From an uncultured Rhodothermales bacterium (GTDB lineage Bacteria; Bacteroidota; Rhodothermia; Rhodothermales; UBA10348): DNA of 64,000 nucleotides. Of the stretch, positions 16,987 through 64,000 are shown piece after piece (position 1 is the first letter of the stretch; every line of letters begins with the position of its first letter). The DNA lies in assembly GCA_964383365.1 (NCBI GenBank), contig CAYLHF010000012.1, positions 8,745 through 72,744 on the forward strand. The letters run 5' to 3'. Both the position numbers and the translations under genes were made by a program. The notes beneath the pieces were generated by a model. That model did no database searches. It was not told the DNA's origin and worked only from the letters and a program-made list of their open reading frames with translations.

Positions 16987-17049
16987 CGAATTCGGATCAA
17001 GATTTTCTACATCGTGTCGATACCGAACGTGGTAAATCGGATCTAATTC

Positions 17050-19322: not shown

Positions 19323-19325
19323 CGG

Positions 19326-20489: not shown

Positions 20490-20512
20490 TATGGCTTTAG
20501 GAATCGGCATTT

Positions 20513-22147: not shown

Positions 22148-22167
22148 CGGACACTCCGGAGGCGACC

Positions 22168-43485: not shown

Positions 43486-43497
43486 AGTCTAATCAAT

Positions 43498-44463: not shown

Positions 44464-44493
44464 AGTAATAAATTAAAATCAGTGCGGGCCTGT

Positions 44494-45687: not shown

Positions 45688-45777
45688 GACTCACAGGCGA
45701 TTACGAATGATCATACGATCCGACCAAGAATATCAGATCTGTCGGACGAAATTCCTAATTCAGATCACCGCTCAACG

Positions 45778-46401
45778 CTACTTACCGGCCAATATTTCGG
45801 CTTTCGTAGCTTCCGGGATCGGATGGGCGATTTTGGCTTTAGCTTCCTCAAAGTTGAATCCTTTGAAAGCGGGGCTTTCGTCATTATGACAGGTGAGACA
45901 GGTAGCCTCATCAGGGATCTTGAGACCAACCGACTCGGGAGTAATCTCTCCCTTGACGAGTGCAATCATCGTCTTCTTTTTGTAGTAATTCTGTCCAGCA
46001 TTATGGCAGGATTCACAGCCTACGCCGTCCTCCATTTTGTATTTCTTTCCCAGAAATTCCGGATCGACACCGTAGCCAGTTACATGACATTTCAGACACG
46101 CTGGATCTTCCTGAGGACTGTCTATGCCGACAGCGGCACCGTATTCCTTCGCCTTGTCTCCCGCCAGGGTTTCATAGGCCTTCGCGTGGGCTGTTTTCTG
46201 CCAGATTCCGTACTGCTCACCCTGTTCCACTTTTTTGTGACAGGTCTTGCATTTTGCAACGCCCTGATACACGGCTTGATCGATTCCAACCAGGTCGAAC
46301 TGTCCATTATTTTGAACGACGCTCGACCTCATGGCCGTGTTCATGAATGAAAACCCGACGATCACGACCATCAGAAAAACACCGGTGATCTCCCGCTTCA
46401 T
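45778..46401 (-). CDS. Tetraheme c-type cytochrome (cytochrome c554-like family)
   Basis: It has an N-terminal anchor and 4 CxxCH motifs (CKTCH, CLKCH, CESCH, CLTCH). The spacing and the GVGCESCHNAGQNY context are as in c554-type proteins. Confidence 0.75.
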   Translation of the reverse strand: MKREITGVFLMVVIVGFSFMNTAMRSSVVQNNGQFDLVGIDQAVYQGVAKCKTCHKKVEQGEQYGIWQKTAHAKAYETLAGDKAKEYGAAVGIDSPQEDPACLKCHVTGYGVDPEFLGKKYKMEDGVGCESCHNAGQNYYKKKTMIALVKGEITPESVGLKIPDEATCLTCHNDESPAFKGFNFEEAKAKIAHPIPEATKAEILAGK

Positions 46402-46526
46402 TATTCTACCTCTAATTCCTTTGTAACGTTAGCCTATCCAGGCGAATATCTTTCGTTTGAAGGGTATCGCAGAATGTTCAGAGTATCAAATAGATCGGTC
46501 CTATTCGCGACATTTCATTACAAGAT

Positions 46527-46799
46527 TCATTCCGAATCTACATTCTCGGAGCGTCCCTTTACAAATTCGCGCCGCAAACCGACGAAGACATAGGTCAGTA
46601 CACTGGCTAATCCTAAAAATACGGGAACTGCTACAAGACTGATACCGATGCTCGCACCCAATGCGTCCTGATATCGGAGCGACAGAGATACCAGATTTAT
46701 CATCCAGATCGTTATTCCTCCGACGAAAAACCAGATCGCTGAGACGCTCGCTACCTGTAAAATGAAAATGAAAGGGGTATTTGGATCTGTTTTCTTCAT
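46527..46799 (-). CDS. Small two-TM membrane protein, ActD-position subunit of the quinone-module
   Basis: The 90-aa protein has two hydrophobic helices. Its start overlaps the NrfD-like gene stop by 4 nt (46796-46799). I recognise no family. Confidence 0.5.
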   Translation of the reverse strand: MKKTDPNTPFIFILQVASVSAIWFFVGGITIWMINLVSLSLRYQDALGASIGISLVAVPVFLGLASVLTYVFVGLRREFVKGRSENVDSE

Positions 46800-48127
46800 G
46801 ACACATCGGGTAGATAACTTTCAATTCTTTCGGATACTTCTTCCACACTTTCATCGCGACCTTCCTCTATTTCCCATACAGAAATCAGAGGGAAGACCTT
46901 GGAGAACAGCAAGAATCCGAGCATAAATACGGCAACGGCACCTGCGAACAGAGACCACTCGACGAGAGACGGGAGATAAGATCCTATGGGTAGATCCACT
47001 CTCGGGTTTGCGAGTGACGGAACTACGATGATAAATCGTTCCAACCACATCCCGATCACTACCGTGATGGAAGCGATCAGAATACCGGGAATCGTCTTGA
47101 GTTTCTTGAACGAGAGTATCGTCACGGGAATGATGAAATTGCACACCACCATCGCCCAAAAGTACACCGCAAATGGACCGGTAAATTTGTACCAGATAAT
47201 ATCCATTTCATGGGGCTCATTACCGAATACGCCTGTCAGGAATTCTGAGAACGTAAAGTAGAACCACAGGATCGACATGATGAGCAACAGACGACTCAAA
47301 TAATCGAAATGGATGAATTTCAGATACGCTTCGAAGTGATAGAGCTTCCGGAAAAATATCATCACGATCAGAAGGGCGGCAATTCCCGAGAAGATTGCTC
47401 CCACAACGAAATACGGTCCGAATATCGTACTGTGCCATCCCGGTTGGAGCGTCATCGAGAAGATATACGAGATGATCGTATGTACCGAGACTGCGATGGG
47501 GATGACCATGACCATCAAAATACTGATCGCACGATCGAGGATTTTGTGCTGATGAGGTGTTCCGGTCCAGCCCCAGGCCATAAACGTATAGAGTTTATTC
47601 AGCCGACCTCCTCGATCCCGAAGTTTTGCAATATCAGGAATCATGGGCAGGTACAGATAGACTGTGCTTGCTGTAAAATATGCGGTAACACTGGTAACGT
47701 CCCAGAGAAGTGGCGACTGCAAACGACCGACCGTGAACAGGTTCAGCATTCGGTCGGGACGCCCGAGATCCAGGATCGGATGAAGCCCCCCGATGGCCAG
47801 TACAATCGCTGTGATGACTTCTGCCATCCTCGTAATCGGTCGCCTCCACTCGGCCTGAGACAGCCGTAGTATCGCGGATATCAGCGTACCCGCATGACTA
47901 ATTCCGATGAAGAACACGAAGTTTACGATGTAGAACCCCCATGTCACGGGTTCATTCATTCCTGTAACACCGAGTCCGTATCGGATCTGGGTAATATACA
48001 TGTAGAGTGCCCAGACGATTACCGCCACGAGCACCACAACCGAAATGTAGAATCCTCGTCCCGTCTCATAAATCGGCCGGTATAGCGCGGCATCGGTGCC
48101 ATAGTCCTTTTTCTGTGTTTCAGCCAT
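46796..48127 (-). CDS. NrfD/PsrC/ActC-type integral membrane quinone-interacting subunit
   Basis: The conserved N-terminal region is GLGVTGMNEPVTWGFYIVNFVFFIGISHAGTLISAILRLSQAEWRRPITRMAEV. About 10 TM helices are predicted. Confidence 0.85.
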   Translation of the reverse strand: MAETQKKDYGTDAALYRPIYETGRGFYISVVVLVAVIVWALYMYITQIRYGLGVTGMNEPVTWGFYIVNFVFFIGISHAGTLISAILRLSQAEWRRPITRMAEVITAIVLAIGGLHPILDLGRPDRMLNLFTVGRLQSPLLWDVTSVTAYFTASTVYLYLPMIPDIAKLRDRGGRLNKLYTFMAWGWTGTPHQHKILDRAISILMVMVIPIAVSVHTIISYIFSMTLQPGWHSTIFGPYFVVGAIFSGIAALLIVMIFFRKLYHFEAYLKFIHFDYLSRLLLIMSILWFYFTFSEFLTGVFGNEPHEMDIIWYKFTGPFAVYFWAMVVCNFIIPVTILSFKKLKTIPGILIASITVVIGMWLERFIIVVPSLANPRVDLPIGSYLPSLVEWSLFAGAVAVFMLGFLLFSKVFPLISVWEIEEGRDESVEEVSERIESYLPDVS

Positions 48128-48129
48128 GA

Positions 48130-48813
48130 TTATTCTTTCTCCGCGAGATAGTAGACTTTGGGTTCTGTGCCCAGGTCCTCCATAACCCGGAGGGCACGTG
48201 TGCTGTGGGAACGCTCATAGACCTTGCTACTCTTGTCGTCCAGATCTCCGAATGTGATGGCGTCGGCGGGGCAGCTTTCCGCGCAGGCAGGGACGTATTC
48301 ACCGTCACGTACCTCGCGATCCTCCAGTGCAGCCTGTTCACGCGCCTTGATCAGACGGTGAGCGCAGAACGAACACTTTTCAACGACGCCCTTCATCCGG
48401 AGAGATACATCTGGATTATGGGTGGCATCCTGTGCTTCATTCCACTCAGGTTCATACCAATTGAATGACTTCGCCGTGAACGGACACGCCGCCATACAAT
48501 AGCGACATCCTATACAGCGGTTATAGATCTGAGCTACGAGCCCTTCGTCGTTTATGTAGGTAGCGTGAACCGGGCAAACACGCGTACACGGTGGATTATC
48601 ACAGTGGAAACAAAGACGAGGCACTCGTTTGGCGCTCATATCAGGATAGTCCCCTTCGTAGGCGGTCGTCATGTCCATCCAGAACATGGCACGACTCGAA
48701 TTCGCCTCCTCCGGGCTGACCACGGCTACATTATTCTCGATTTTGCACGCCGCGACACAGTCGCCACAGCCGGTGCACTTATCGAGATCTATGACCATTC
48801 CCCATTTAGGCAT
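48130..48813 (-). CDS. 4Fe-4S ferredoxin-type iron-sulfur subunit (PsrB/NrfC/ActB2-like)
   Basis: MVIDLDKCTGCGDCVAACKIENN and further Cys clusters are present (CFHCDNPPCTRVCP, CIGCRYCMAACP, CSFCAHRL...CAESCP). Confidence 0.85.
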   Translation of the reverse strand: MPKWGMVIDLDKCTGCGDCVAACKIENNVAVVSPEEANSSRAMFWMDMTTAYEGDYPDMSAKRVPRLCFHCDNPPCTRVCPVHATYINDEGLVAQIYNRCIGCRYCMAACPFTAKSFNWYEPEWNEAQDATHNPDVSLRMKGVVEKCSFCAHRLIKAREQAALEDREVRDGEYVPACAESCPADAITFGDLDDKSSKVYERSHSTRALRVMEDLGTEPKVYYLAEKE

Positions 48814-48855
48814 TGTGTGATCCTCTCGATTGCTTGCTAGGGTTTTTCATTTTCG

Positions 48856-51219
48856 TCAGGCTCTTTTCTTGATGCGAACCAGCGTGGATTGCGTGGCCGG
48901 TGTTCCGCCGAGGCGATCATATATTCCGGCCATAATAGCGTTCGGATTCTCGCCAAATCCATCGGCGTTCTGTCCGAAATTAGTGTGCCCCATACCGAAT
49001 GGAATTGCGACCGTGTTCGGGACAATTCCCTCGTGAATTTTTGCTTGGACCCGAACGGCTCCCTGTCTGGACTCGATCCATACCCAGTCACCATCCTGAA
49101 TGTCATTGTCAGCAGCTGTGACGGGACTCATTTCGACCCAGGTGTTCCAGTAGCATCTTACTGCCTGGCCCATCATTTCCTGAAGCATGCGATCATTAGC
49201 ACCCCGTCCATCTCGGTGCGTGAGCGTCTGAAATGTGATTAGATTCAGGTCATACCCGTCGCTCTCTATCGTCTCACTATGGGCTCCAGTCTCCAGTAGA
49301 TGCGCTGTCGTAAGATCGTATTTCCTCGATGACGTGTGGAATACCGGCGGTTTCTCGTACCGGACGGAATCGGGATTCCACCAGCCGCCCCTGTCGACCA
49401 ATTTTTTCCAGAACGAATCGAAGGAGCGCTCTCTTCCGGGAGTATGATTCGGTCGCGACGAACGATCCGACCAGAATTCCCCCGCGCTCTCAGACGCAAT
49501 CATTCCGGTACCGGATTCGAAGAGACCCCGGGTTTGATTTTTGATGGTTTCCTTCAGCGTTTTATATGGGTACGCTGCAGATACAGAGTCATCAAGCCGA
49601 TTCGCGATGTCAATCAGTACATCGGCAGGGGTTCTTGACTCATAGAAAGGAGCAATAACCGGCTGTTGGACACCCACATACGACATGGGAACCGTGGGAA
49701 CAGAATCGACGACACCCCAGGACTCCAGAAACGTGCTTGCCGGGAGGATGAGATCAGCATTTGCATTCGTTTCGTTCTGGAATACGTCAAAACTCACTGT
49801 CAGGGGTGTATTTCGAAGCAACGACTCGAAATCGTGATGACGGATCGAAGAAAACAACGGATTCCCACCAAAAAGGAACAGCACACTGACCGGATACGGA
49901 TCCTGAGCGCCGGCGTTGTTGATGAGTTCATCCGGGCTGAAGGCAACTGCCGGATAATCGCCCTTGGTGGAGCGACCAATCGGCAGGGCCTTGATACCCT
50001 CCCTAGCAATAGAATCAGGTTTTACGCTGGCAAAGGATGCAAAGGGAACGTCAGATGGTCGAACGACTCCGCCCTTCTTTCCAAGATTTCCCAGGAGCAC
50101 ATTCAGAGCGTGGACGGCGAGTGCCCCGGTTGTACCGTCAGTCGTAGAACGTAGGCCCTGGTCGCCCAGAATAATGGCATGATCGGCATGTCCGACCTCG
50201 CGCGCAATCGACTCGATCGTCTCCGATGGAATCCCGGTAAGCTCACCGACTTTCGCGGGATGATACGAGTCCATTACGATGGATTTGAATCCAGCGTGTT
50301 TTACACCCCGAGCGTCTTTCCAATCGTCAAAACCAACGGTTCTTTTGTCGACAAAAGATGCGTCATACAAATTGTCACGAATCAACACATGGGCTATACC
50401 CAGCGCAAATGACGCATACGTCCCTGGTTTGATAGGGACCCATTGGTCAGCATTCGACGCAGACAGATTCAGCCTGGCGTCAGCATGTATGATTCGTGCC
50501 CTAGATCCATCTTCGCGGTCCCTGGAACGACTGAATACCTTCGTATGGTATACGGGAGCATATCCCTCTTCAAGGTAATTGGCGCCCACGCTCAGTATGA
50601 CATCTGCATTTCCTGTGTCGTATGCCGGTAACGTACGTGTCCCTTCTGCCATCTCATGCGCCGCACCGGCAAAAACATCGTCAGCAAATCGATAATAATT
50701 TGGCGATCCAAACGCCTGCATGAATCGGTCAATATGCTGCTGCTCAAACGCCGATTCGTCGGAGCCGAGACAGACCAATTCTTCCGTCCTTTTCTCTCGA
50801 CGAAGTGTTGAGAGAGCTTCGTTAATCATATTGAGCGCCTCGTCCCACGAGATCTCCTCCCAATGACCATCTCCAGGTGATCCTACATGTCTCACTGGCT
50901 GCTTCAAGCGATCGGGGTTGAAGAGCATTCCGATCGAACTTCGGCCGAGCGGGCAAATTCCTCCGAGACTGATCGGATTCATCGGATTACCTTTGACCAT
51001 TATCGGGACATCGTCTATGAGGCGCACAGACAATCCGCATCCCCCCGGACATCGCCGGCAGATGGTATTCTTCCATGTCTCAATCCCTTTTCCCCTCTTG
51101 ACCTGCTCGACGAGTTCGTCCGGCACATCGATCATTTCATCGATACCAAATCCACCGAGAGCAATCGCTCCCGACACACCGCCCAGCAATCTCAAAAATT
51201 CGCGTCGCTGTATCTTCAT
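48856..51219 (-). CDS. Tat-exported molybdopterin-oxidoreductase-family (CISM) large subunit, PsrA/QrcB/ActB1-like; substrate and cofactor status unknown
   Basis: It has the twin-arginine signal MKIQRREFLRLLGG and an N-terminal Cys group C54-x2-C57-x3-C61...C89 (ICRRCPGGCGL...GGICPLG), which is typical of the FS0 [4Fe-4S] site. The length and overall pattern fit the family. Confidence 0.75.
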   Translation of the reverse strand: MKIQRREFLRLLGGVSGAIALGGFGIDEMIDVPDELVEQVKRGKGIETWKNTICRRCPGGCGLSVRLIDDVPIMVKGNPMNPISLGGICPLGRSSIGMLFNPDRLKQPVRHVGSPGDGHWEEISWDEALNMINEALSTLRREKRTEELVCLGSDESAFEQQHIDRFMQAFGSPNYYRFADDVFAGAAHEMAEGTRTLPAYDTGNADVILSVGANYLEEGYAPVYHTKVFSRSRDREDGSRARIIHADARLNLSASNADQWVPIKPGTYASFALGIAHVLIRDNLYDASFVDKRTVGFDDWKDARGVKHAGFKSIVMDSYHPAKVGELTGIPSETIESIAREVGHADHAIILGDQGLRSTTDGTTGALAVHALNVLLGNLGKKGGVVRPSDVPFASFASVKPDSIAREGIKALPIGRSTKGDYPAVAFSPDELINNAGAQDPYPVSVLFLFGGNPLFSSIRHHDFESLLRNTPLTVSFDVFQNETNANADLILPASTFLESWGVVDSVPTVPMSYVGVQQPVIAPFYESRTPADVLIDIANRLDDSVSAAYPYKTLKETIKNQTRGLFESGTGMIASESAGEFWSDRSSRPNHTPGRERSFDSFWKKLVDRGGWWNPDSVRYEKPPVFHTSSRKYDLTTAHLLETGAHSETIESDGYDLNLITFQTLTHRDGRGANDRMLQEMMGQAVRCYWNTWVEMSPVTAADNDIQDGDWVWIESRQGAVRVQAKIHEGIVPNTVAIPFGMGHTNFGQNADGFGENPNAIMAGIYDRLGGTPATQSTLVRIKKRA

Positions 51220-51876: not shown

Positions 51877-54006
51877 CTACTTCAGCAGAACCATCTGACG
51901 GGTCTCTACACTCTTCTGAGCCATCAGCTGGTAGAAGTAGATCCCGGAAGCCAAGCCTTCTCCGGAGAACTCAACCTCGTACCGACCCGGAACCATATCG
52001 CGATTTACGAGCGTCTTGACGAGACGACCAAGCGAATCGTAGACATTTAGCGCGACGTGTTCTGAGTTCGATACATTGAAACGGATTCTCGTAACAGGAT
52101 TAAACGGGTTGGGATAATTCTGTTCGAGATCATACGTCACTGGAATCTCATCCGTAGCAAGTTCCTCTACACCCGTAATGGTAGAGAAGTCCAGGGTGTA
52201 AATGGTTCCATCAATGCCGTCGTTTGGATGCTCGTGTCCTTCGTTGTCGAAGATCTCATGGGTGAAATCTACGGTCCCGCCCGGAACGACTGCGAAGTCA
52301 TGCTCCGTACCGGCGTAGGCACGTTTGAATTCGACGGTCCACACACCATTTTTATAGCTACTGGATGTGGTAACGGATGCTCTGTCTCCATCGGGTACTC
52401 GCATGACGTAACCGGGAATTGTACTACCATTTACCCAGGCGGCATTCGGATCGAACGTCGTGGCCATGGACACTGCCGCCGACGAGTGAGCCGTCATGGC
52501 CGTCATCGCGGCGGCGTCCATCCCGAGGAATACCGGGCTTTCTGCCGGCCCGTTGGCCGCCATGAATTGTGGATTTCCATTGGCATCGGCCCCGTTGTCG
52601 GAATAGGCGCTCGTACCGCTGTCTCCATGCATGGTATCTGTTCCAACCCATTTATCATCGACATATCCCAGCGCTGTTCCGCCGCGAGCGGCCTTCCAGT
52701 GCCAGTTGTCTACGACACCGTTATTGGTTCTCATCACACCGTCAAAATGGCACATGGTTGTACAATTGGCGCCGTCAGTGCCGTTAAGTCCCATGTCGAA
52801 GATGAGTCCGAATCTATCTTCGTCGCCGGATTGTGTCCAGGACGTGCCATCGTACGCCCAGAGATGTTTATTAATGGACTCCGTCCCGGACTTATCGACC
52901 CACTGTGCGGACAGGTAGAAATCGTTCCCGTCGGCCATGGCATTCATCGTGACGCCATTGGCAGTGATGAGCGGCTGCGAGGTCCACTCACCCGGAGTGA
53001 CCGTACCATCCATTACCGGTGCTCCGCTGCCAACTACCAATCGCGTTGATCCTGTCAGTTGAGCGAAATCAAGCGTGTAGATGGTCCCGTCAACTCCATC
53101 GTTGGGATGGCTCCCTCCTTCATTGTCGAAGATTTCGTGCGTGAATGCCACGCTCCTACCCGGTGTAACCGTGAAGTCACCCGGAGATCCTGCATAAGAA
53201 CGTTTGAATTCGACCGTCCATACTCCATTGTCAAAAGTCGCCCGAGAAAGAACCGAAGCTCTGTCGCCCGACGGCACCCGGTTGATATATCCGGGAATTT
53301 TGGCACCGGCCGCCCAACCGGCATTCGGATCAAACGGAACAGCTATGGCTGCTGGAAGTGAGGTGTTCGCCTGCGCCAGGTCCTGTGCTGCCTGATCTTG
53401 CGTCAGATACGTGACACTCGTTCCCGGTCCACCCGTCGGCATGAAACTCGGATTTCCATTCGAATCGGACCCATTATCGGCATATGCACTGACGCCAGCA
53501 TCTCCGTGAAAATTATCGGTCCGAACATTTTTGTCATCGACGTACCCCATCGCCACACCACCACGTGCAGCCTTCCAGTGCCAGTTATCAGCGATGCCTG
53601 TATTGGTTCTCATCAGGCCGTCGAAATGACACATGGTCGTGCAACTCGCGCCGTCTGCACCGTTGAGGCCCATGTCGAATATGAAACCAAACCGATCTTC
53701 ATTTCCCGTCTGACTCCACGCGGTTCCGTCGTACGTCCACAGGTGTTTGTCGACGCTCATGGTATTCGTTTTATCCGTCCACTGCACCGCGAGATACAGA
53801 TCGTTTCCGTCCCCCATCGCGTACATCGTCACGTTGTTTGCCGTAACCAGGGCCGGGCCCGTGTATTCTCCCGAAGAGATAACGCCATCGAGTGTCGCGC
53901 TCCCGGGTGTGGCCGTCAGCGTGGTCTGAGCACTGGCATCGACTGCCAGAGCTGCGACGAAAACGGCGAATAGAAGTTGTTGTATATGTCCTCTCATTTT
54001 AGGCAC
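51877..54006 (-). CDS. T9SS-sorted surface protein with two tandem EB_dh/DOMON-like putative heme-binding domains, each carrying a CTTMCH motif
   Basis: It has a signal peptide (LLFAVFVAALAVDASAQ). An internal duplication covers aa ~29-320 and ~321-612, and each copy contains EDRFG.IFDMGLNG.DGA.CTTMCHFDG.MRTN.G..DNWHWKAARGG..GYVDDK, which is the EB_dh-like W.WKA signature. The CTTMCH codons are at 53626-53643 and 52747-52764. The C-terminus LEQNYPNPFNPVTRIRFNV...GIYFYQLMAQKSVETRQMVLLK is a T9SS CTD. The GTG at 54006 and the ATG at 53997 are both possible starts. Confidence 0.7.
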   Translation of the reverse strand: MPKMRGHIQQLLFAVFVAALAVDASAQTTLTATPGSATLDGVISSGEYTGPALVTANNVTMYAMGDGNDLYLAVQWTDKTNTMSVDKHLWTYDGTAWSQTGNEDRFGFIFDMGLNGADGASCTTMCHFDGLMRTNTGIADNWHWKAARGGVAMGYVDDKNVRTDNFHGDAGVSAYADNGSDSNGNPSFMPTGGPGTSVTYLTQDQAAQDLAQANTSLPAAIAVPFDPNAGWAAGAKIPGYINRVPSGDRASVLSRATFDNGVWTVEFKRSYAGSPGDFTVTPGRSVAFTHEIFDNEGGSHPNDGVDGTIYTLDFAQLTGSTRLVVGSGAPVMDGTVTPGEWTSQPLITANGVTMNAMADGNDFYLSAQWVDKSGTESINKHLWAYDGTSWTQSGDEDRFGLIFDMGLNGTDGANCTTMCHFDGVMRTNNGVVDNWHWKAARGGTALGYVDDKWVGTDTMHGDSGTSAYSDNGADANGNPQFMAANGPAESPVFLGMDAAAMTAMTAHSSAAVSMATTFDPNAAWVNGSTIPGYVMRVPDGDRASVTTSSSYKNGVWTVEFKRAYAGTEHDFAVVPGGTVDFTHEIFDNEGHEHPNDGIDGTIYTLDFSTITGVEELATDEIPVTYDLEQNYPNPFNPVTRIRFNVSNSEHVALNVYDSLGRLVKTLVNRDMVPGRYEVEFSGEGLASGIYFYQLMAQKSVETRQMVLLK

Positions 54007-55873: not shown

Positions 55874-57562
55874 TCAGACCTGATCCAGCTTGAACTCGGT
55901 CAGCCTGCGATAGAACGTCGCCCGAGATATGCCAAGCAATTTGGCGGCCGCTTTGCGGTTGCCCTCCGTGTGCCGAAGGGCCGCCAGGATACGATCACGC
56001 TCATCGTCGGGTAATCCGTCAGGAAGCAAATCGGCCGCCACCGACGTGCGAACCTCCGGCGGGAGCGAATTCGCCTCGATGATACTCCCGGGAGTATGAA
56101 TCATTGCGTATTCAATCGCATTGGCAAGTTCGCGCACGTTTCCCGGCCAATTGTACTCCAGCATGCAACGGACCGCCGATTCACCGAGTGTGTCAATTTC
56201 TACTCCTGATTTTGCCGATAGGCCACTCAGGAAGTGGTACGCAAGGAGTGGAATATCGCTTCTCCGTTCCCGGAGAGGAGGCAGCTCCAGGCGGGCGACT
56301 CGGATGCGGAATAACAGGTCCTGTCTGAAGGTCCCGTTCTCGACCTCGGTGGGAAGATGTCGGTGCGAAGCGGCAACAATACGAACATCTACCTTTCTTG
56401 CCTTGGTCTCACCGACACGCGTAACGGTTCGTTCCTCCAGGACGCGAAGCAGATTCACCTGAATATCCAACGGAATATCTCCAATCTCATCCAGGAACAA
56501 GGTTCCCCCGTTCGCAGCGCCAAAGTAGCCGGGTTCGTCCGAAATGGCACCGGTGAATGAGCCTCTCTTATGTCCGAAAAGCTGACTCGCTACCAGCGAC
56601 TCTGTGAGTGCACCGCAGTTCACTGCTACAAAGGGCTTGGATGCCCTGGCACTGGCATCGTGAATGGCACGAGCAACGAGTTCTTTTCCGGTCCCCGTCT
56701 CTCCCTCTATTAAGACAGTAGAATCGAAGCGTGCGGCCGACTTGATTTGATCAAAAATGCGATTCATCGGCTCACTGTCGCCGATAATGTCTCCGCCTTT
56801 GTTTTGTCGGGCCAGCTGTCGTCGGAGGTCATGGACCTTCGTAACATCGTAAAAAACGAACAAGCGCCGTCGCTTTTCCTGAGGATCTCTGCGGATGTCG
56901 AGTTCCATGTGATAGGATTGGCCGTGGTCGAGAGAAATCCTCGTAGGAATACGCGTCGACGTTCCGTCTTCAGAATCAAATTTAGCGCGTACGCGCGAGA
57001 TCGTCTCCGACTGAAAGGGCAGCACTCGATCCCACATAAGGCCCAGGGCATCAGACTCATTGATTCCGAGTAATCGTCGAGCTACCTGACTGACGAACAC
57101 GATTCTACCGTCCGCGTCCGTAATTACCGTCCCGATTCGGAGTCCGTCGAGCAGAAGCTGCAAATTATCCCGATCCCGGCGAAGTAGTCTGTGAGATCTG
57201 TATTTGGATAATGCAACCTCGATATTCGCACGTAACTCGCTCTCCTGAAACGGTTTGATCACATACCCGAATGGTCCGGTGGCGTTGGCTCTATTGAGCG
57301 TTTGTTCGTCTCCAAAAGCCGTGAGAAAAACAACAGGCACGTCTTGTGACTCCCTGATCAACTGCGCAGCTTCGATCCCATCCATCGTCCCTTCCAGATG
57401 GACATCCATGAGGATCAGGTCCGGCCGTAGAGCCGACGCTCGCCTGACGGCCTGCTCGCCTGAAACAACTTTATCGACCACCTGATACCCCAGCTGCTGC
57501 AGGTGGTATTCCAACTCCAGAGCGGTTATCGCTTCATCTTCAACTATCAGTACCTTTACCAC
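55874..57562 (-). CDS. Sigma-54-dependent response regulator (REC-PAS-AAA+-HTH, NtrC family)
   Basis: The REC domain is VLIVEDE...DLILMDVHL. The AAA+ sigma-54 interaction domain has GETGTGKELVARAIH, GHKRGSFTGA and LFLDEIGD. The C-terminal Fis-type HTH is NRKAAAKLLGISRATFYRRL. Confidence 0.9.
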   Translation of the reverse strand: MVKVLIVEDEAITALELEYHLQQLGYQVVDKVVSGEQAVRRASALRPDLILMDVHLEGTMDGIEAAQLIRESQDVPVVFLTAFGDEQTLNRANATGPFGYVIKPFQESELRANIEVALSKYRSHRLLRRDRDNLQLLLDGLRIGTVITDADGRIVFVSQVARRLLGINESDALGLMWDRVLPFQSETISRVRAKFDSEDGTSTRIPTRISLDHGQSYHMELDIRRDPQEKRRRLFVFYDVTKVHDLRRQLARQNKGGDIIGDSEPMNRIFDQIKSAARFDSTVLIEGETGTGKELVARAIHDASARASKPFVAVNCGALTESLVASQLFGHKRGSFTGAISDEPGYFGAANGGTLFLDEIGDIPLDIQVNLLRVLEERTVTRVGETKARKVDVRIVAASHRHLPTEVENGTFRQDLLFRIRVARLELPPLRERRSDIPLLAYHFLSGLSAKSGVEIDTLGESAVRCMLEYNWPGNVRELANAIEYAMIHTPGSIIEANSLPPEVRTSVAADLLPDGLPDDERDRILAALRHTEGNRKAAAKLLGISRATFYRRLTEFKLDQV

Positions 57563-57586: not shown

Positions 57587-60500
57587 TCAGTGAGTACCCA
57601 TTTTTTGCCTGACCTCATCCTCCGATACGGACCCATGAATCGAAACGACTGGAAAAATGATGTCAAAACGGGCACCCTGAGGACCTGACTTCCGTGTTTC
57701 AGCTATCGTAAAACGACCGCCCAGACGCGAGACCAGACCTCTTACAAGATTCAGTCCAAGAGACGCCTCGGTGTGCGTTGCATAATCGTCTGACAGTCCC
57801 GCTCCGTCGTCGGATACCGTGAGACGATAAAATTCCTGTTCACGCTCCATACGGATTTTAATCGTGCCCCCTTCGGAATTATCTGGAAAGGCATGCTTCA
57901 GCGCGTTTGACACCAGTTCTGTCAGAATCAACCCGCAAGAGATAGCCCTGTCTACGTCCATATAATGTATGGGACACTGAATCTGAATAAGAATGTTTCT
58001 GTTTTGCGCATCATAGGATACGAGCAGTTGCTCCGTAATACCTCTAAGGTAGCCGTCAAAATCCAACTCGGCCAGATTGTCAGACCTGTACACTCGTTCG
58101 TGGATCGTAGAAATCGAATAAATTCGATCCCGACATTCGTCAAACAGGCGTTTTGTCGCATCGTCACTAACCTGGCGAGACTGCAAGCGAAGAAGACTCG
58201 AGATCATCTGCAGGTTATTCTTGACTCTGTGATGGACCTCCCGGAGTAGAATATCTTTCTGTTCGAGAGAATCCCTGAGCTCTTCGGTTGTGGCCTGAAG
58301 TTCATCGGTCGCCGTCTCAAAATCATGGGTTCTCGCAGTTACCTCCTTCTCAAGAATTTTCTGCCTGTGACGGAGACTCCTGACCCGAACCCTATGTCCG
58401 AACGCAATAGCTCCGGAAAAGAGTAGACCGACGATTATCCAGAAGAATATCGTCTGGTAGAAGAACGGTTCGACCGTGAACGAAATGGAAGCTCCCTCTC
58501 GATTCCAAACGCCATCATTGTTGGATGCCATTAACTCGAACGTATACGTACCGGGAGCCAGATGAGTAAATGTGGCAGACGTTTCATTGTCAGCATTTAC
58601 CCATACATCCTCGTAACCCTCGAGTCGATATCGGTATGAAACCGTATTCGGGTCAACCAGACTCAATCCGGCATACGCTATCTCGATTCTCTTGACACTC
58701 GGAGATACCTCGACCCCTTTTCTGAGATCTGCCCGAATATCATCCAGATAGACGCTCTCGATAACGACGGGAGGAATCGTCTCATTCCGTCTGAGATTTG
58801 TCGGATTTACGACGGCTACGCCGGAGACTGTCGGAAACCACAGGCGTCCATCGGAACCACGCCAACCTGCCGGCTGAACCCCACCATTTACCTCGCGAGT
58901 TCGGAGTCCGTCGTCGGTACCATAGATCGCGTTGCCTACCCGGTCGGCTGCTCCACGTCCCACGTCGTCGAGATCGCGTTTAGAAACTGAAAACACGCCC
59001 CGATTACAACCCATCCACAGGTTGCCGTTATCATCTTCGAGAATTTGAAAAATTTTATCGTCGAACAGCCCCTCTCTGGATCCGAATGTCAGGAAGCGAT
59101 TGTCCTTAAATCGAGTCAAGCCGCCACCGTACGTTCCTATCCAGAGCGTACCGTCCTGATCCAGGTAAAGGGCAGATATGGTGTTACTCCCGAGTCCCGA
59201 ATCGGTCGTAAACGACGTAAATTTGCCGTTATTGAAGAGATTGAGCCCGTCTTCGTAGGTTCCTATCCAGAGCTCACCGTTCGGGCTCTCTGCAATCGCT
59301 GTTACCGAATTACCCGACAGCCCATCGGCAGTCGTATACGACCGGATAGATGACCCGTCAATAACAGAAAGTCCGTTGTCGGTACCTACCCAGAGGCGGC
59401 CATCAAATGACGTGTACAACGCATAAACGGCGTTACTGGCCAACCCGTTAGTCGACGTGTAGGACCGAATTCGCCGGTCTTTCCAGAGAGTGAGCCCGGC
59501 GTCCACCGTTCCAATCCAATATGCTCCGTTCGGGGCGCCGGCTATACTCGTGACCACGTTACTCGGTAGTCCGGACTCGGTCGTGATCGATGTCAGACTC
59601 GATCCAACTAATTTGGAAATTCCACCACCGAATGTGCCAACAAGAATGGCACCGGCTCTGTCCTCAAAGACTGTTGATACGGCGTTGGAAACAAGTCCTT
59701 CTCGCTCTGACCACGTCGTAAATGCTCCGTCACGTAGCCTGTTGAGTCCACCGCCACCGGTTCCTATCCAGAGACTTCCCTCTCGATCTTCCATCACGGA
59801 GAGTACGCGCCCGTTGGAGAGACCTTCCTCCGGCGTGAAGGTATCCATCGAGCCATCATGATATCTGGCCATTCCAGTATGGTCCAGGCCCAGCCAAATG
59901 GACCCGGAACCATCTTCAACAATAGACCACACGACATCTTCAGGCCACCCGTTGGACGGGTCAAGATGCCGTACATGCTCTCCTTCGATTCTCATCAACC
60001 CCGAGTGTGTCCCGACCCAGACACGATCTTCCCGGTCGATATAGAGTTCCTGGACCAGCGACCCCGAAACGCTTCGGATCTCATGGGGTGCCTGGTCCGC
60101 TCCGACGTGCATTTCTGCCAGGCCCTGATCCGTTCCGATCCATAATTCATCGCTCGCCGAAAGTGCGATCGTCTGGACAAGATTCCCTGGAAGCCCCTTC
60201 GACGTATCGAACTTCGTACAAACATCCTGGACGCATGAAAGCAGACCATTTTTACTCGTGCCCAGAAATAGAGTACCATTCGATGATAGTTCTATATCAT
60301 TGATTCGAACGGACCCGAAAGATGTCAGGGGCATATAGTTTTGGACGACGCCATCCCGATAATACAGGACGCCGGCACCGTCCGTCCCAATCCATATTCG
60401 CCCGTCTGCACCCTCTTTCAGGGCGAGAACATTATGACCTCGCTCGAATGCCAGCGTATTTCTTCCGTTATACACTGTAAACGTGCGACCATCGAAGCGA

Positions 60501-60721
60501 GCGAGACCTTCTTCGGTGCCTAACCACAGATATCCGTTCGAAGATTGGATGAGGGCATGAACTGTATTCTGAGGTAGGCCTTCGTCGTACTGCCAGACAT
60601 CGTGTAAAAGCTGGGTGATGGCCTTCTGCGGATCCAGAGGTTGAAACAATCCTGTTGCCGACAGTCTTACGGGCTGGGTGAGACTGACGAGGGCGACGAC
60701 AGCAGATAAGACTTTATTCAT
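57587..60721 (-). CDS. Sensor histidine kinase with Reg_prop beta-propeller repeats, Y_Y_Y domain and HisKA_2-type transmitter
   Basis: Propeller repeats (DG.LWIGT..GL) are followed by YRYRLEGYEDVW, a TM helix (IFFWIIVGLLFSGAIAF), a coiled coil, LLREVHHRVKNNLQMISSLLRLQ (HisKA_2/HWE-like H-box) and an ATPase region (ELVSNALKHAF, DDGAG). It ends 24 nt upstream of the regulator gene. Confidence 0.85.
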   Translation of the reverse strand: MNKVLSAVVALVSLTQPVRLSATGLFQPLDPQKAITQLLHDVWQYDEGLPQNTVHALIQSSNGYLWLGTEEGLARFDGRTFTVYNGRNTLAFERGHNVLALKEGADGRIWIGTDGAGVLYYRDGVVQNYMPLTSFGSVRINDIELSSNGTLFLGTSKNGLLSCVQDVCTKFDTSKGLPGNLVQTIALSASDELWIGTDQGLAEMHVGADQAPHEIRSVSGSLVQELYIDREDRVWVGTHSGLMRIEGEHVRHLDPSNGWPEDVVWSIVEDGSGSIWLGLDHTGMARYHDGSMDTFTPEEGLSNGRVLSVMEDREGSLWIGTGGGGLNRLRDGAFTTWSEREGLVSNAVSTVFEDRAGAILVGTFGGGISKLVGSSLTSITTESGLPSNVVTSIAGAPNGAYWIGTVDAGLTLWKDRRIRSYTSTNGLASNAVYALYTSFDGRLWVGTDNGLSVIDGSSIRSYTTADGLSGNSVTAIAESPNGELWIGTYEDGLNLFNNGKFTSFTTDSGLGSNTISALYLDQDGTLWIGTYGGGLTRFKDNRFLTFGSREGLFDDKIFQILEDDNGNLWMGCNRGVFSVSKRDLDDVGRGAADRVGNAIYGTDDGLRTREVNGGVQPAGWRGSDGRLWFPTVSGVAVVNPTNLRRNETIPPVVIESVYLDDIRADLRKGVEVSPSVKRIEIAYAGLSLVDPNTVSYRYRLEGYEDVWVNADNETSATFTHLAPGTYTFELMASNNDGVWNREGASISFTVEPFFYQTIFFWIIVGLLFSGAIAFGHRVRVRSLRHRQKILEKEVTARTHDFETATDELQATTEELRDSLEQKDILLREVHHRVKNNLQMISSLLRLQSRQVSDDATKRLFDECRDRIYSISTIHERVYRSDNLAELDFDGYLRGITEQLLVSYDAQNRNILIQIQCPIHYMDVDRAISCGLILTELVSNALKHAFPDNSEGGTIKIRMEREQEFYRLTVSDDGAGLSDDYATHTEASLGLNLVRGLVSRLGGRFTIAETRKSGPQGARFDIIFPVVSIHGSVSEDEVRQKMGTH

Positions 60722-60923
60722 AGCTATAGGTACGCGCTACAAAATGACGGAAACCGGTAATTTCCGATCACAAAAACCAATCCAAATCGATCTTTAATAG
60801 AAATTTAATTTTGAATCAACAGAAATGGATGGGATGTGAAGGATAATATAGATTCTATTCCGTATTTACCGTAGCAGGCCAATGAAAGAGCGTCCTACCG
60901 TGCCACCCCCACCGTTTTACTTT

Positions 60924-60939
60924 GGCACCGCTTTTGCAA
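60924..60939 (+). promoter_or_regulatory. Consensus sigma-54 (-24/-12) promoter of the S8 protease gene
   Basis: TGGCACcgcttTTGCA is an exact match to TGGCAC-N5-TTGCA. It lies ~40 nt upstream of ATG 60980, in the divergent intergenic region shared with the kinase/NtrC-type regulator operon. Confidence 0.8.
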
Positions 60940-60979
60940 GTTCAGCCTGCCCCTTCGTTCGAAAGAACCGTTGACCGTT

Positions 60980-62353
60980 ATGAACAAGCAGAGAAAGTGG
61001 GTTCTCCACGGAACCCTCCTCATCACGTTCCTGCTGACATCGCGATGCACTGACCGTGCTCCGACGTCTGCCATGGAATCTGACCCGGTATTCTCCGTCG
61101 AGAGTACTGCCAAGACTCGCCATATGAACCTCCTCGGGACGTCCTTCGATGCTCTCGGGAAGGGCTCAGGCACGGCACAAATAATCGTCAAATTTTCCAA
61201 CCCTACGCTTGATGCGAATGGTTGGCTTCGTCGCTATGGATGGCTCAGGCGATACGGCTGGCTGCGACGTCATGACGTGACAGGATCCATAGTCGATCTG
61301 GGTGTGGCCGCGACGATGAATAAAAAAGATATTCGGAAGGCCCTCGGAATCGGAGATCATGAAGACGCGCTGGCTACAGCCATCGAGTTGTTGTCCGGAG
61401 ATCCGGATGTGAGTCTTATCGAACCGGATATTCCGGTGTCCGGTCCTGACGGCGGGTTCTCCGGAGCGAAGATGAAAGACCAGTATATCTCGTGGGGGAT
61501 CCGTGATATCGGAGCGATCGGAGGGTCTGACGGAGAGGATCAGGATGACGGCGATGATGAGGATCGGGACGAGATGGATGATGTGGAAGACGTAAGCGTT
61601 TTCGTTCTCGATACGGCATTTGGCAAAGACGATCTTAATCTGAAAGAGGAGCGTATTTTCAGTAACGGTAAGGGGCCTAAATACTTCACACACGGCTATC
61701 ATATTGCGGCGACAATCGGAGCAAAAGACAATGACAAGGGTGTTTTGGGCGTTGCTCCAGGTGTGGAAATGAACAGTTTTGTTGTTCTCAATGCGGCGGG
61801 GAAAACAGATGAATCCGTGGTCATTCAGGCATTGAATGAAGTCATGGCCTATGCCGCGTCGAACGGCGACAAGCATTCGAATCCCATCATTGTCAGTCTC
61901 AGTCTCGGGGAGAACATCCATTCAACAGAGGCTACGCTTCTCGATGACGCTATCACGGACGCAGTAGCCATGGGTATCACCGTGGTTGTCTCGGCAGGTA
62001 ATGACGGCGTCGATGCCGCTACGGTCACACCCGCCCATGCATCCGGAGCCATCACAGTCGGTGCGTATGATCATGATCACGACTGGGCATCGTTTTCGAA
62101 CTATGGTAAGACCGTCAATATCGTAGCTCCCGGAGTCGATGTCGTTTCTCTGGGACGGATCAAAAAGGGACGGACGGAACTGACTATCGCAACCGGCACA
62201 TCCATGGCGGTACCCTATGTAGTCGGTGCCGCAGCTCGTTACCTGAGTGAGCACCCGGGAGCCGACCGTGAGGAAGTCCTCAACGCCCTGATGAGCTCAC
62301 CGATCTCCGGTCCAGATGGTGCAAGTTATCCTATGGTCACCGTCAGAGAGTAG
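60980..62353 (+). CDS. Subtilisin-like serine protease (peptidase S8) with unusual N-terminal region
   Basis: The catalytic triad contexts are VFVLDTAF (Asp), HGYHIAATIG (His) and GTSMAVPYVVGAAA (Ser). The N-terminal signal-like segment is WVLHGTLLITFLLTS. The pro-region contains GWLRRY GWLRRY GWLRRH and an acidic tract GEDQDDGDDEDRDEMDDVED. I saw no T9SS CTD. Confidence 0.85.
   Translation: MNKQRKWVLHGTLLITFLLTSRCTDRAPTSAMESDPVFSVESTAKTRHMNLLGTSFDALGKGSGTAQIIVKFSNPTLDANGWLRRYGWLRRYGWLRRHDVTGSIVDLGVAATMNKKDIRKALGIGDHEDALATAIELLSGDPDVSLIEPDIPVSGPDGGFSGAKMKDQYISWGIRDIGAIGGSDGEDQDDGDDEDRDEMDDVEDVSVFVLDTAFGKDDLNLKEERIFSNGKGPKYFTHGYHIAATIGAKDNDKGVLGVAPGVEMNSFVVLNAAGKTDESVVIQALNEVMAYAASNGDKHSNPIIVSLSLGENIHSTEATLLDDAITDAVAMGITVVVSAGNDGVDAATVTPAHASGAITVGAYDHDHDWASFSNYGKTVNIVAPGVDVVSLGRIKKGRTELTIATGTSMAVPYVVGAAARYLSEHPGADREEVLNALMSSPISGPDGASYPMVTVRE
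61220..61273 (+). repeat. Three tandem 18-nt units encoding GWLRRY/GWLRRY/GWLRRH with divergent codons
   Basis: The units are ggt tgg ctt cgt cgc tat / gga tgg ctc agg cga tac / ggc tgg ctg cga cgt cat. Every degenerate codon position differs between copies while the peptide is conserved. Confidence 0.95.
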
Positions 62354-62385
62354 ACCGTATACAGGAACGGGATCCAGACCAGCTT

Positions 62386-62426
62386 TTGAGCCGCTCTCGA
62401 CTGAGTCGAGAGCGGCTCAATTTTTT
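62386..62426 (+). terminator. Rho-independent terminator of the S8 protease gene
   Basis: A perfect 16-bp stem, ttgagccgctctcgac (62386-62401) / gtcgagagcggctcaa (62405-62420), has the loop tga and is followed by TTTTTT (62421-62426). Confidence 0.9.
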
Positions 62427-62490
62427 CGTTCCAATGCACATCGCACGCCGAGAAAAACCCCGAAATATATGGCCGCCCTGAATCATTAAT

Positions 62491-62541
62491 GTGTCTCACA
62501 TGAGACACGCATGAGACACCGACGAGACACTTTCTGTGTCT
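62491..62541. repeat. Helically phased heptamer array: GTGTCTC - GAGACAC x3 - GTGTCTt
   Basis: The copies are GTGTCTC at 62491-62497, GAGACAC at 62502-62508, 62513-62519 and 62524-62530, and the inverted GTGTCT at 62536-62541. Start-to-start spacings are 11, 11, 11 and 12 bp. The array lies between convergent genes, downstream of the terminator at 62386-62426. Confidence 0.9.
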
Positions 62542-62605
62542 TTTGACGGGCCCGAGACCTGGATGCAACCGCAACACCCGTCGTGGAGGGAGCCGTCTAC
62601 ACCCA

Positions 62606-64000
62606 CTAACGAATGAGCGTCAGCGTGTGGGTTCGCTGTCCAGACGGAGCCACCAACCTGCATAGATAGGTTCCGCCGGCGAGTTGATCGGGCGTGAACT
62701 CCATCTCGTGTACCCCCATCGAGAGCCTGCCAGAGAACACAGAACCCACTCTCCGACCCGTCATATCGAATACGTCCACGGAAACATCGCCCGCCTTTGC
62801 GATGGAAAACCGGATCGTTGTTCGGTCCGAGAACGGATTGGGGTAGTTTTCGAATGTGGACTCGATGTCTAACGGAGCATCCTGATCCGTCCGTTCTGTC
62901 AATCGGTTACCGTCATAGACCGCTTCGCCCGTTCCGTCTGATACGGCTCGATGAGAGGCTGAAAGGTCTACACGCGTGGGGATTTCGACGTATCTCTTTC
63001 CCCCGGCTGTCTGAATTCTAATCGTGTATTGATCGGGTATTTCACGTACGATCCAGGTCCACGAGCGTTCTTCAAGTGGAATACCTGACGCCAGCGTAGT
63101 AAAGTCATTTCCACTTCCGCGCGAAATCAAGATATCGACACTTCCGGATCGAAAACCTTTGTATTTCCACGTGATGGGCACCTCATCGTTAATAACAACA
63201 GAAGAGAGCCCGGTTTTGTCAGGGGCAATCATAACTCCAAGTTCGTACGGCGTAATGCGCACCTTTCCCCGTACATCGACAAATTGCCCCGTTGTCTGAT
63301 CGTAAATTCCGACATCATAGGAACCTGATCCGTCCAGACAGTCAATCCGCATGGGTTCACGGGGTAATTCAATCCGGACCACCTCGGTTTGTCCTGCCGG
63401 AATCCGAAGCTTTGCCGTCGTCACGTGGCAATCGAGTTGAAGGAATACCGGTCCACCTGTTCTGACAGGTGCCATATAAATGTCCAGTGGATACTCGCCC
63501 GAATCGTGCTTAGTCGTGTTGGAAACAGACAGACTCAACAAACGGCCATCTCGGCGATCCATTGGGATACGGGTAGTCGAAACCGATTCAGCATCTTCAG
63601 GAGATAAGGTGAGATGAACCCAATTGTCGAAACGTACGGTCTCGGTCGGTCCCTGAAACCCATCATCTGTCATCGCCCGGACGTACCACGTTCCCGGCGA
63701 GAGACAGGCAATGTCATCCGGACGAATGGTAACATCGCCCGAGAGCGCTTCGTCCGGATCAAAATGGAATTCAAGCGACGAGACCATGCAGTCGTTGAGA
63801 TCGACCTGGGTATCCGATGAAAAGTACAAGCTGATATAGTCGGTCCGAAACTCGGTCTTATTATTTCTGGCAGCTACCCGAAGTACGATCACCTGATCCT
63901 CCCCTTCCGGAGGAGTCAATCCGATATCTGAAACAACACTCAAGAAATGGTTGGTATCGCCCGGAGTCCCCGGGTTTCCCATCGTGCCAGAGATACGTCT
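62606..64000 (-). CDS. T9SS-sorted hypothetical protein (5' end beyond window)
   Basis: The frame stays open to the window end, with no stop upstream of the ATG at 63982. The C-terminus ENYPNPFSDRTTIRFSIAKAGDVSVDVFDMTGRRV...GTYLCRLVAPSGQRTHTLTLIR is a T9SS CTD. The body looks like beta-sandwich repeats and I recognise no catalytic motif. Confidence 0.65.
   Translation of the reverse strand, partial: RRISGTMGNPGTPGDTNHFLSVVSDIGLTPPEGEDQVIVLRVAARNNKTEFRTDYISLYFSSDTQVDLNDCMVSSLEFHFDPDEALSGDVTIRPDDIACLSPGTWYVRAMTDDGFQGPTETVRFDNWVHLTLSPEDAESVSTTRIPMDRRDGRLLSLSVSNTTKHDSGEYPLDIYMAPVRTGGPVFLQLDCHVTTAKLRIPAGQTEVVRIELPREPMRIDCLDGSGSYDVGIYDQTTGQFVDVRGKVRITPYELGVMIAPDKTGLSSVVINDEVPITWKYKGFRSGSVDILISRGSGNDFTTLASGIPLEERSWTWIVREIPDQYTIRIQTAGGKRYVEIPTRVDLSASHRAVSDGTGEAVYDGNRLTERTDQDAPLDIESTFENYPNPFSDRTTIRFSIAKAGDVSVDVFDMTGRRVGSVFSGRLSMGVHEMEFTPDQLAGGTYLCRLVAPSGQRTHTLTLIR

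Follow-up and report, generated by a model that had tools for sequence, protein, structure and literature searches.

We report that an S8-family protease gene in a 64,000-nucleotide stretch of DNA from an uncultured Rhodothermales bacterium (GCA_964383365.1, contig CAYLHF010000012.1, positions 8,745 to 72,744 of the forward strand; hereafter the window) encodes, ahead of its catalytic domain, three tandem copies of a six-residue unit, and that its relatives carry tandem units of the same kind at the same place. The subtilase prodomain is an intramolecular chaperone and temporary inhibitor that is later cleaved off and degraded. The reading we favor, with moderate confidence and on the strength of predicted structures, is that the triplet forms the alpha1-to-beta2 segment of a subtilisin-like protease prodomain, and that this segment is built from tandem six-residue units. 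The gene, its catalytic residues and the triplet lie as follows.

60971 to 62353, plus strand: coding sequence of the S8 subtilase precursor, 460 residues, from the open reading frame list and a Pfam Peptidase_S8 match.
61610 to 62203, plus strand: catalytic core, made up of Asp214 (61610-61612), His241 (61691-61693), Asn344 (62000-62002) and Ser411 (62201-62203), assigned from invariant alignment columns.
61220 to 61273, plus strand: three tandem units, GWLRRY-GWLRRY-GWLRRH, residues 84 to 101, from the sequence, its codons and an AlphaFold model that places them in helix alpha1 and strand beta2.

The open reading frame may begin at a TTG (60971) or an ATG (60980). Its Pfam scan returned Peptidase_S8 (PF00082) alone, over residues 237-443 (E = 1.3e-32; 113.7 bits against a cut-off of 21.8). 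Asp214, His241 and Ser411, together with the oxyanion Asn344, do not vary across an alignment with 23 homologs and the catalytic triad is intact; judged from its sequence, the gene is an intact S8 subtilase.

An earlier reading of the sequence alone (the sequence-only reading) had singled out the triplet as a peptide repeat with fully diverged codons, each copy using its own, and had proposed that it is under selection at the peptide level. Re-reading the DNA bears out the repeat and its divergence. The three copies are spelled GGT TGG CTT CGT CGC TAT, GGA TGG CTC AGG CGA TAC and GGC TGG CTG CGA CGT CAT: Gly, Leu and both Arg are encoded differently in all three, while Tyr occurs in two copies only, with differing codons, and the third has His in its place. 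In none of 13 comparisons is a degenerate codon common to two copies. Pairwise nucleotide identities are 12, 13 and 11 of 18, against 13.65 +/- 1.3 expected for random synonymous encodings with the codon usage of the window; under the same usage, codons that differ between all copies at every degenerate position would arise with probability 0.02, in a test devised post hoc. Tandem Repeats Finder reported no DNA-level repeat at the triplet. From this comparison, the synonymous sites of the triplet are saturated, or perhaps slightly over-dispersed, with the peptide kept. Three units within 18 residues are not a chance occurrence, because the unit pattern arises only 0.03 times per 100 residues in shuffled family sequence.

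The best homologs of the window protease are only 39-40% identical to it and carry tandem hexapeptides at the same place. Examples are given below.

P0001: KLLRRY QMVERY KLLRRY.
P0002: AFLRRY SFLRRY AFLRRY.
P0003, of the x-Phi-Phi-E-R-Y type (Phi, hydrophobic): RVMERY KILERY RIFERY KLMERY.
P0006: five units.
P0013: RILRRF RILRRY.

When 1.84 billion representative proteins were searched exhaustively with HMMER and a pro-region profile, 105 clusters came out, and every one of them that was read through the catalytic region proved to be an S8 protease. A metagenome scan added 31 further family loci. A scan of genome contigs with full-length alignments keyed on generic S8 patterns and gave a single true family locus (L001), and a word-indexed search with the pro-region profile brought only 4 new proteins. 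Strict units occur in the pro-region of 124 of 176 non-redundant family sequences, with 1-5 per protein and 324 in total; copy number thus varies among homologs. The family consensus is [KR]-[VIL]-L-[ED]-R-Y, with the following composition over the 324 units.

Position 1: K or R in 83%.
Position 2: V, I or L in 92%.
Position 3: L in 71%.
Position 4: E or D in 69%, R in 8%.
Position 5: R, which the search pattern demands.
Position 6: Y in 83%, F in 12%.

Trp at position 2 is confined to the three units of the window (3/324), and a basic residue stands at position 4 in 16 of the 124 unit-carrying proteins. In a neighbor-joining tree of catalytic domains, built without support values, the window protease groups with P0009, P0001, P0013, P0002, P0170 and P0195, all of which have x-Phi-L-(R/K)-R-Y units; the dibasic form is therefore clade-wide and the Gly-Trp pair private to the window. 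Absence of the repeat from close homologs, which would have spoken against selection on the peptide, is not what we find, since the closest relatives (P0001, P0002, P0009, P0013 and P0170) carry the dibasic x-Phi-L-R-R-Y form. Peptide-level selection on the triplet is thus supported at the level of sequence, by saturated synonymous sites under a maintained peptide and by the recurrence of the unit at the same position in most of the family. Codon sharing between the units of one gene ranges from high, as in L001 (16/18) and L092, L094 and L109 (14/18), which are recent duplications, to near random, as in L084 (5/18) and L090 (7/30); arrays have thus been both repeatedly born and long maintained. 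Tandem paralog arrays are frequent in the family, with four genes in L084 (1248-9311) and L091 (3852-13969), three in L088 (7824-14364) and two in L081, L090, L092, L098, L104, L108 and L112; the window has one copy in its 64 kb.

Two AlphaFold models place these units within a folded prodomain. The window protein, modeled on the alignment with 23 homologs, reached a predicted local distance difference test score (pLDDT) of 83 and a predicted template modeling score (pTM) of 0.84, and its best Foldseek match in the Protein Data Bank was unautoprocessed pro-subtilisin E (3whi; E = 8e-26; target-normalized TM-score 0.80). Pro-Tk-subtilisin is also among the top structural matches, and the alignments span 408-450 columns, covering prodomain and enzyme. 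As modeled, the protein has the subtilisin fold, and its prodomain adopts the beta-alpha-beta-beta-alpha-beta layout of subtilisin-type (I9) propeptides, in the order strand 68-75, helix 82-88, strand 92-101, strand 107-117, helices 118-125 and 133-142, and strand 147-152. The parts flanking the triplet are these.

61172 to 61195, plus strand: prodomain strand beta1, AQIIVKFS, residues 68 to 75, from the AlphaFold model, matching the family's L-I-V block in alignments.
61274 to 61441, plus strand: remainder of the prodomain, residues 102 to 157, with beta3, two helices and beta4 with DPDVSLIEPD, from the AlphaFold model.

E151, P152 and D153, in the last of these segments, are nearly invariant among homologs. 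Within the triplet (pLDDT 75-84), unit 1 falls in the helix and units 2 and 3 in the long strand. The model of P0003, a four-unit homolog, built on a 63-sequence alignment (pLDDT 88; 80-94 over the units), has a strand at 100-108, a helix at 116-125 holding units 1 and 2, a strand at 129-137 holding units 3 and 4 plus E-Y, and a strand at 143-150, so that the split of the units between helix and strand is alike in both. The sequence-only reading had proposed a membrane or cell-envelope anchor, a cleavage-site cassette or a released peptide, and had allowed for a disordered linker; both models put the units inside the fold, as alpha1 and beta2, and not in such a linker. A weak alignment points the same way. 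After the units, the family has a block Y-x-Y-x-x-V-F-x-G-F-A ... D-P-D-I-x-W-x-E-P-D, and the family profile matches the proteinase K propeptide (8rse) over beta2-beta4 without significance (E = 1.5), pairing E-Y-x-x-V-F-x-G-F-A ... D-P-D-I-x-W-x-E-P-D with V-Y-K-N-V-F-S-G-F-A-A ... H-P-D-V-E-Y-I-E-Q-D. This weak alignment would put the units in alpha1 and the first part of beta2.

The units are conserved and lie at a fixed place between beta1 and beta3, where they are predicted to fold as one short helix and one long strand. Under the prodomain reading, the domain that holds them would help the catalytic domain to fold, block it and then be removed. Because subtilase prodomains are cut off and degraded, the units would act in the zymogen and be destroyed on activation.

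Several observations weigh against this reading. Copies in the helix and copies in the strand keep an identical sequence, which a purely structural role leaves unexplained. The distance from beta1 to beta2 is as short as 16 residues in P0005 and exceeds 100 in others, and the repeat periods are 6, 10, 12 and 25. The unit is found N-terminal of beta1 as well (P0008, P0010, P0019 and P0166-P0168) and, within the catalytic domain, in the Asp-His loop (P0202, P0213, P0194, P0187, P0174 and the gene at 12536-13969 of L091). The I9 fold assignment comes from predicted models only, and the Pfam I9 model (PF05922) gave no match in the window protease at E <= 0.1; precomputed Pfam annotation of the close family likewise lists PF00082 only.

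The longer periods belong to distinct repeats: a decapeptide, GVTRRVLEEY, in about 8-10 copies in P0015, P0201 and P0214; a 12-residue repeat, DPYRIIERYGEM, in P0138, P0146 and P0130; and a 25-residue repeat in P0014. The decapeptide subfamily (P0015, P0193, P0198, P0200, P0201, P0209 and P0214) has 6-10 or more copies spanning over 100 residues at the same prodomain position. Insertions in the Asp-His loop hold one to three units (for example, ILERY-GLLERF-ALMERF) that replace or add to those of the prodomain. Portability of this kind is expected of a short recognition motif, and we therefore keep three further explanations beside the structural one: a binding motif, a cleavage cassette and released peptides.

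If the units (GWLRRYGWLRRY) were a cassette of repeated self-cleavage sites, the activated protease would take its own inhibitor apart at them; they would thereby time activation, and hexapeptides would arise as by-products. Activation of a subtilase requires that its prodomain be degraded, and the unit offers a hydrophobic residue four positions ahead of its invariant Arg and an aromatic residue behind it, an arrangement that could fit the hydrophobic S4 pocket of subtilases. The family also has an Asp beside the oxyanion Asn (G-N-D-G). In subtilisin BPN', an acidic residue beside this Asn favors a basic P1. A single site would nevertheless be enough for activation, leaving tandem copies superfluous; the decamer subfamily has no Arg at unit position 5; the expected junction of pro and mature sequence holds nothing like a unit; and a cut at the Asp-His loop units of some members would hit the catalytic domain. 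We consider an autoprocessing role quite unlikely.

The sequence-only reading had also noted an acidic run about 85 residues past the repeat, just ahead of the catalytic Asp, and had taken it as part of the pro-region, where an anionic segment might neutralize a cationic peptide.

61526 to 61591, plus strand: acidic low-complexity insertion SDGEDQDDGDDEDRDEMDDVED, residues 186 to 207 (S186-D207), defined by comparison with the family loop sGDGxGxVDvD, which lacks it.

Its position is as described: the tract begins 86 residues past the triplet and ends 7 residues ahead of Asp214. It does not belong to the pro-region, because it follows the segment SWGIRDIGA, which corresponds to the mature N-terminus of subtilisin BPN' (VPYGVSQIKA), and thus lies in the mature domain. 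The window loop holds about 12 acidic residues beyond the s-G-D-G-x-G-x-V-D-v-D of its relatives, and the tract is absent from homologs. Tandem Repeats Finder detects within it an 18-nucleotide duplication (61528-61564; 2.1 copies, 84% matches) encoding DGEDQD and DGDDED; the tract is young, grown by recent slippage, unlike the old GWLRRY units. It sits in the N-terminal surface loop of the mature domain and is predicted to be disordered, as pLDDT is 55-58 across the 181-200 blocks and drops under 50 at residues 186-192.

The charge over the 30 residues ahead of the catalytic Asp is -14 in the window protein, the lowest of 87 family members (next, -9; median, -3). This loop charge does not correlate with the charge of the repeat (rho -0.05), and charge compensation by the loop was dropped on that ground. 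The remaining pro-region is acidic family-wide, and its charge correlates weakly with that of the repeat (rho -0.31, p = 0.004, in a comparison that ignores phylogeny). Neutralization of a cationic peptide by an anionic pro-segment thus finds no footing in this tract, which is in the mature domain, is missing from homologs, contains a recent duplication and has a loop charge uncorrelated with that of the repeat. The tract would instead be a separate, young and disordered insertion in the mature domain, providing at most a lineage-specific charge balance. Poly-acidic insertions occur elsewhere in P0002, P0195, P0163, P0186 and P0144 and look like a general habit of the proteins of this family.

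The genomic neighborhood of the protease gene bears on the two remaining explanations. Flanked on both sides by genes on the opposite strand, the protease gene faces a divergent kinase, behind which lies a response regulator.

60923 to 60938, plus strand: sigma-54 (-24/-12) promoter TGGCACCGCTTTTGCA, ending 33 nt upstream of the TTG start.
57587 to 60721, minus strand: divergent histidine kinase with Reg_prop repeats, Y_Y_Y, HisKA_2 and HATPase_c, from the Pfam scan.
55874 to 57562, minus strand: sigma-54-dependent response regulator with Response_reg, PAS, Sigma54_activat and HTH_8 domains, from Pfam, 24 nt downstream of the kinase.
62386 to 62430, plus strand: intrinsic terminator, made of a 16-bp stem and a TTTTTT run behind it.

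The element TGGCACCGCTTTTGCA is the sole exact match to TGGCAC-N5-TTGCW on either strand of the window, and no sigma-70-like site was found in 60650-62650. As the terminator follows it, the protease gene is a single-gene transcription unit. The kinase and activator probably drive it from the sigma-54 promoter as a dedicated regulatory module, and protease expression would then be under the control of this neighboring pair. As a trait of the whole family the promoter was rejected: only 10 of 64 upstream regions match when as many as 2 mismatches are allowed, and the promoter is missing from most loci with a kinase beside the protease.

Of about 20 loci with flanking sequence, 10 have a Reg_prop-type kinase no more than 1.3 kb from a family protease: the window, L001, L082, L083, L084 (both sides), L086, L089, L094, L109 (both sides) and L112. 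The arrangement is divergent, tandem or convergent. The kinases were found at 1-546 in L001, 4301-7744 in L082, 10209-13517 in L083, 9758-14383 and 1-625 in L084, 2-3550 in L086, 3138-7802 in L089, 1-2964 in L094, 1181-6127 and 9538-14199 in L109, and 9508-14145 in L112. All 12 strong kinase matches in these family loci are within 1.3 kb of the protease, and some 160 kb (a hand estimate) of more distant flanking DNA gave no strong match. Ten other loci with context have no such kinase. Several of them carry different signaling genes: a hybrid kinase inside the array of L091, a PAS kinase in L117, a sigma-54 regulator in L111, two receiver genes in L081, and an extracytoplasmic function (ECF) sigma factor with a Ser/Thr kinase in L090. 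The window has a second Reg_prop/Y_Y_Y/HisKA kinase (24861-28103, plus strand), 32 kb away and with no family protease beside it, and the background density of such kinases in this genome is therefore not negligible. A full-text literature search found no account of such prodomain repeats or of a link between the protease and Reg_prop kinases.

These neighbors lend some weight to the idea that the unit is a multivalent short linear motif, a helical patch with two hydrophobic residues and an aromatic one on one face, bound by a common partner such as an envelope polymer, a protein or the beta-propeller sensor of the kinase, with copy number tuning the binding or the tethering of the zymogen. 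Such a motif would suit a unit that is portable (found on either side of beta1 and again in the Asp-His loop), whose arrays reach about 10 copies at spacings of 6, 10 or 12 residues and whose copies within one protein remain alike though their codons are saturated, and it would suit the proximity of the kinase in half of the loci, the remaining flanks being without a strong match. Yet AlphaFold puts arrays of 3-4 units confidently within the fold, and the adjoining kinases cannot clearly be assigned to a single orthologous group, as most score higher against the second, non-adjacent kinase of the window. The adjacency in the window is more simply explained by regulation from the sigma-54 promoter. 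We regard a binding motif as unlikely, if worth keeping in view.

The sequence-only reading had also offered a released bioactive peptide, pointing to the Trp/Arg-rich design of membrane-active antimicrobials; here, GWLRRY or the whole 18-mer would be freed, to serve as such an antimicrobial or as a signal for the kinase. With 6 Arg, 3 Trp and a net charge of +6, the 18-mer is indeed short, cationic and rich in Trp and Arg. Throughout the clade of the window protein the dibasic unit is conserved, identical tandem copies recall multi-copy peptide precursors, and the adjoining kinase and sigma-54 activator could complete a feedback loop. As a family property, the antimicrobial design is not supported by comparison with homologs: the consensus, K-V-L-E-R-Y, is nearly neutral, a basic residue at position 4 is restricted to the minority of proteins counted above and Trp to the window. 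The hexamers abut without spacers or recognition sequences; the genes around it encode a kinase, a response regulator and a type IX secretion system (T9SS) protein, with no modifying enzyme, transporter or immunity gene nearby; and the acidic tract supposed to neutralize the peptide lies outside the pro-region and is not conserved. An amphipathic 18-mer, whether helix or strand, was dropped by reasoning from periodicity, as the hydrophobic moment cancels out at both 100 and 180 degrees when the period is 6 residues. A released peptide is, in our view, highly improbable.

A scheme that joins these elements is very unlikely. In it, the unit would be more than scaffold of the prodomain, namely a portable peptide motif, and dismantling of the prodomain would free defined hexapeptides that are sensed by, or already docked to, the Reg_prop kinase, which would feed back through the sigma-54 activator on the protease promoter; the dibasic form of the window clade might in addition be membrane-active. 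If true, this would amount to a self-reporting protease and a peptide-signaling circuit encoded within a zymogen.

Taken together, our findings favor the structural reading, in which a subtilase prodomain segment is made of an expandable and strongly conserved six-residue unit, an arrangement of which the literature search turned up no description. The same unit apparently occurs in a helix and in a strand, which would make it a natural chameleon sequence, useful for folding studies, while its portability and the link to propeller-type sensor kinases hint at a role in recognition. The case also counsels caution: a cationic Trp/Arg repeat is not to be called an antimicrobial cassette before its homologs are examined.

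Upstream of the prodomain, the window protein has two further features.

60971 to 61048, plus strand: N-terminal signal sequence ending LLTSRC (Cys26), an atypical lipobox with Arg at -1.
61106 to 61138, plus strand: K-x-R-H-x-x-L motif, here TAKTRHMNLLG, residues 46 to 56, from family alignments.

The signal region is modeled as a helix over residues 2-23. We applied the lipobox rule [LIVMFWSTAG]2-[LIVMFYSTAGCQ]-[AGS]-C, which 78 of 87 full-length family members satisfy, usually with LTGC followed by T/S/A-D. The window protease does not match it, nor the form [LVI]-[ASTVI]-[GAS]-C, reading L-T-S-R-C with Arg at -1 before Cys26 (61037-61048, residues 23-26), the Cys that serves its relatives as lipoprotein acylation site. 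The family itself is mostly composed of lipoproteins from Rhodothermia-like and Bacteroidota-like bacteria. The K-x-R-H-x-x-L motif lies 15-30 residues past the lipobox in 71 of the 87, and the window protein retains it as KTRHMNL; its region has a pLDDT of about 75 in the window model and 76-88 in that of P0003.

At the other end, the window protease is without a C-terminal Por_Secre_tail domain and so has no signature of T9SS cargo; the next gene (62606-63982) has one. Many family members, including P0006, P0013, P0014, P0024, P0128-P0130, P0133, P0135, P0137, P0138 and others, bear a C-terminal extension of about 250 residues that ends in Y-R-P-x-S-P-A-L-T-E-P-F-W-P, has no Pfam match and is absent from the window protein. 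Still other members end in modules of another kind, and the window protein is without any of these. A 251-residue antisense open reading frame at 61166-61921 was discarded, as nothing supports it.

Elsewhere in the window, four proteins carry T9SS C-terminal sorting domains (62606-63982 and 51877-54006 on the minus strand, 8890-10527 and 18-1394 on the plus strand), among them one with an EB_dh (ethylbenzene-dehydrogenase-like) domain and one with an amidase domain; their presence places the organism in the FCB group. Proteins 57-59% identical to the RmuC of the window carry the names Rhodothermia, Rhodothermales or Bacteroidetes. A minus-strand cluster at 42484-51219 encodes a multiheme cytochrome c, an NrfD-type membrane subunit and a molybdopterin oxidoreductase, and looks like a respiratory module of the alternative complex III or polysulfide reductase kind. 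A plus-strand polysaccharide biosynthesis cluster at 12156-23937 comprises a P-loop protein resembling a chain-length regulator or tyrosine kinase, a Polysacc_synt flippase, a Wzy_C ligase or polymerase and a Bac_transf initiating transferase.

The regulatory arrangement is reminiscent of NtrB/NtrC, in that a gene with a perfect -24/-12 promoter points away from the genes for a histidine kinase and a sigma-54 enhancer-binding regulator. It differs in its sensor, a periplasmic Reg_prop/Y_Y_Y double propeller as in the hybrid two-component systems of Bacteroides, here with a HisKA_2 core, and in that sigma-54 promoters stand upstream of only a subset of family genes.

Short Trp/Arg antimicrobial hexapeptides include the RRWQWR core of lactoferricin and the combinatorial RRWWRF. 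The window units are of similar size and of similar Arg and aromatic composition, with +6 over the 18-mer, but they lie within a predicted folded prodomain, in a family whose consensus is K-V-L-E-R-Y and in which Trp is not conserved. Multi-copy precursors processed by subtilases are known from yeast alpha-factor (Kex2), fungal Kex2-processed repeat proteins and the cyanobactin PatE (PatA/PatG). Like these, the family combines identical short tandem peptides with an S8 protease, and copy number differs among relatives. Here, however, the repeats lie in cis within the protease's own prodomain, free of spacers and flanking recognition sequences, with no tailoring enzyme or exporter near the gene, a layout unlike that of a multi-core precursor or a precursor of a ribosomally synthesized and post-translationally modified peptide (RiPP); against the PatA/PatG NCBIfam model the window protease scores 50.9, with a cut-off of 421.

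Closer parallels come from the subtilisins themselves. Pro-Tk-subtilisin, which is among the best fold matches, and other subtilases with insertion loops near the mature N-terminus resemble the window protein in the site of its extra acidic loop, between the mature N-terminal segment and the strand of the catalytic Asp; in the window this loop is a low-complexity poly-Asp/Glu tract with a recent 18-nucleotide duplication and is predicted to be disordered. With the subtilisin and proteinase K propeptides (I9, PF05922), the segment under study shares its place N-terminal to the S8 domain, its predicted beta-alpha-beta-beta-alpha-beta order, pro-subtilisins as best structural matches and, in a weak alignment (E = 1.5), the V-F-x-G-F-A and D-P-D-V-x-x-x-E-P-D blocks. 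The window family differs from them in escaping the Pfam I9 model, in the added upstream K-x-R-H-x-x-L motif, in consisting mostly of lipoproteins and in an alpha1-beta2 stretch made of tandem units of variable number and spacing.

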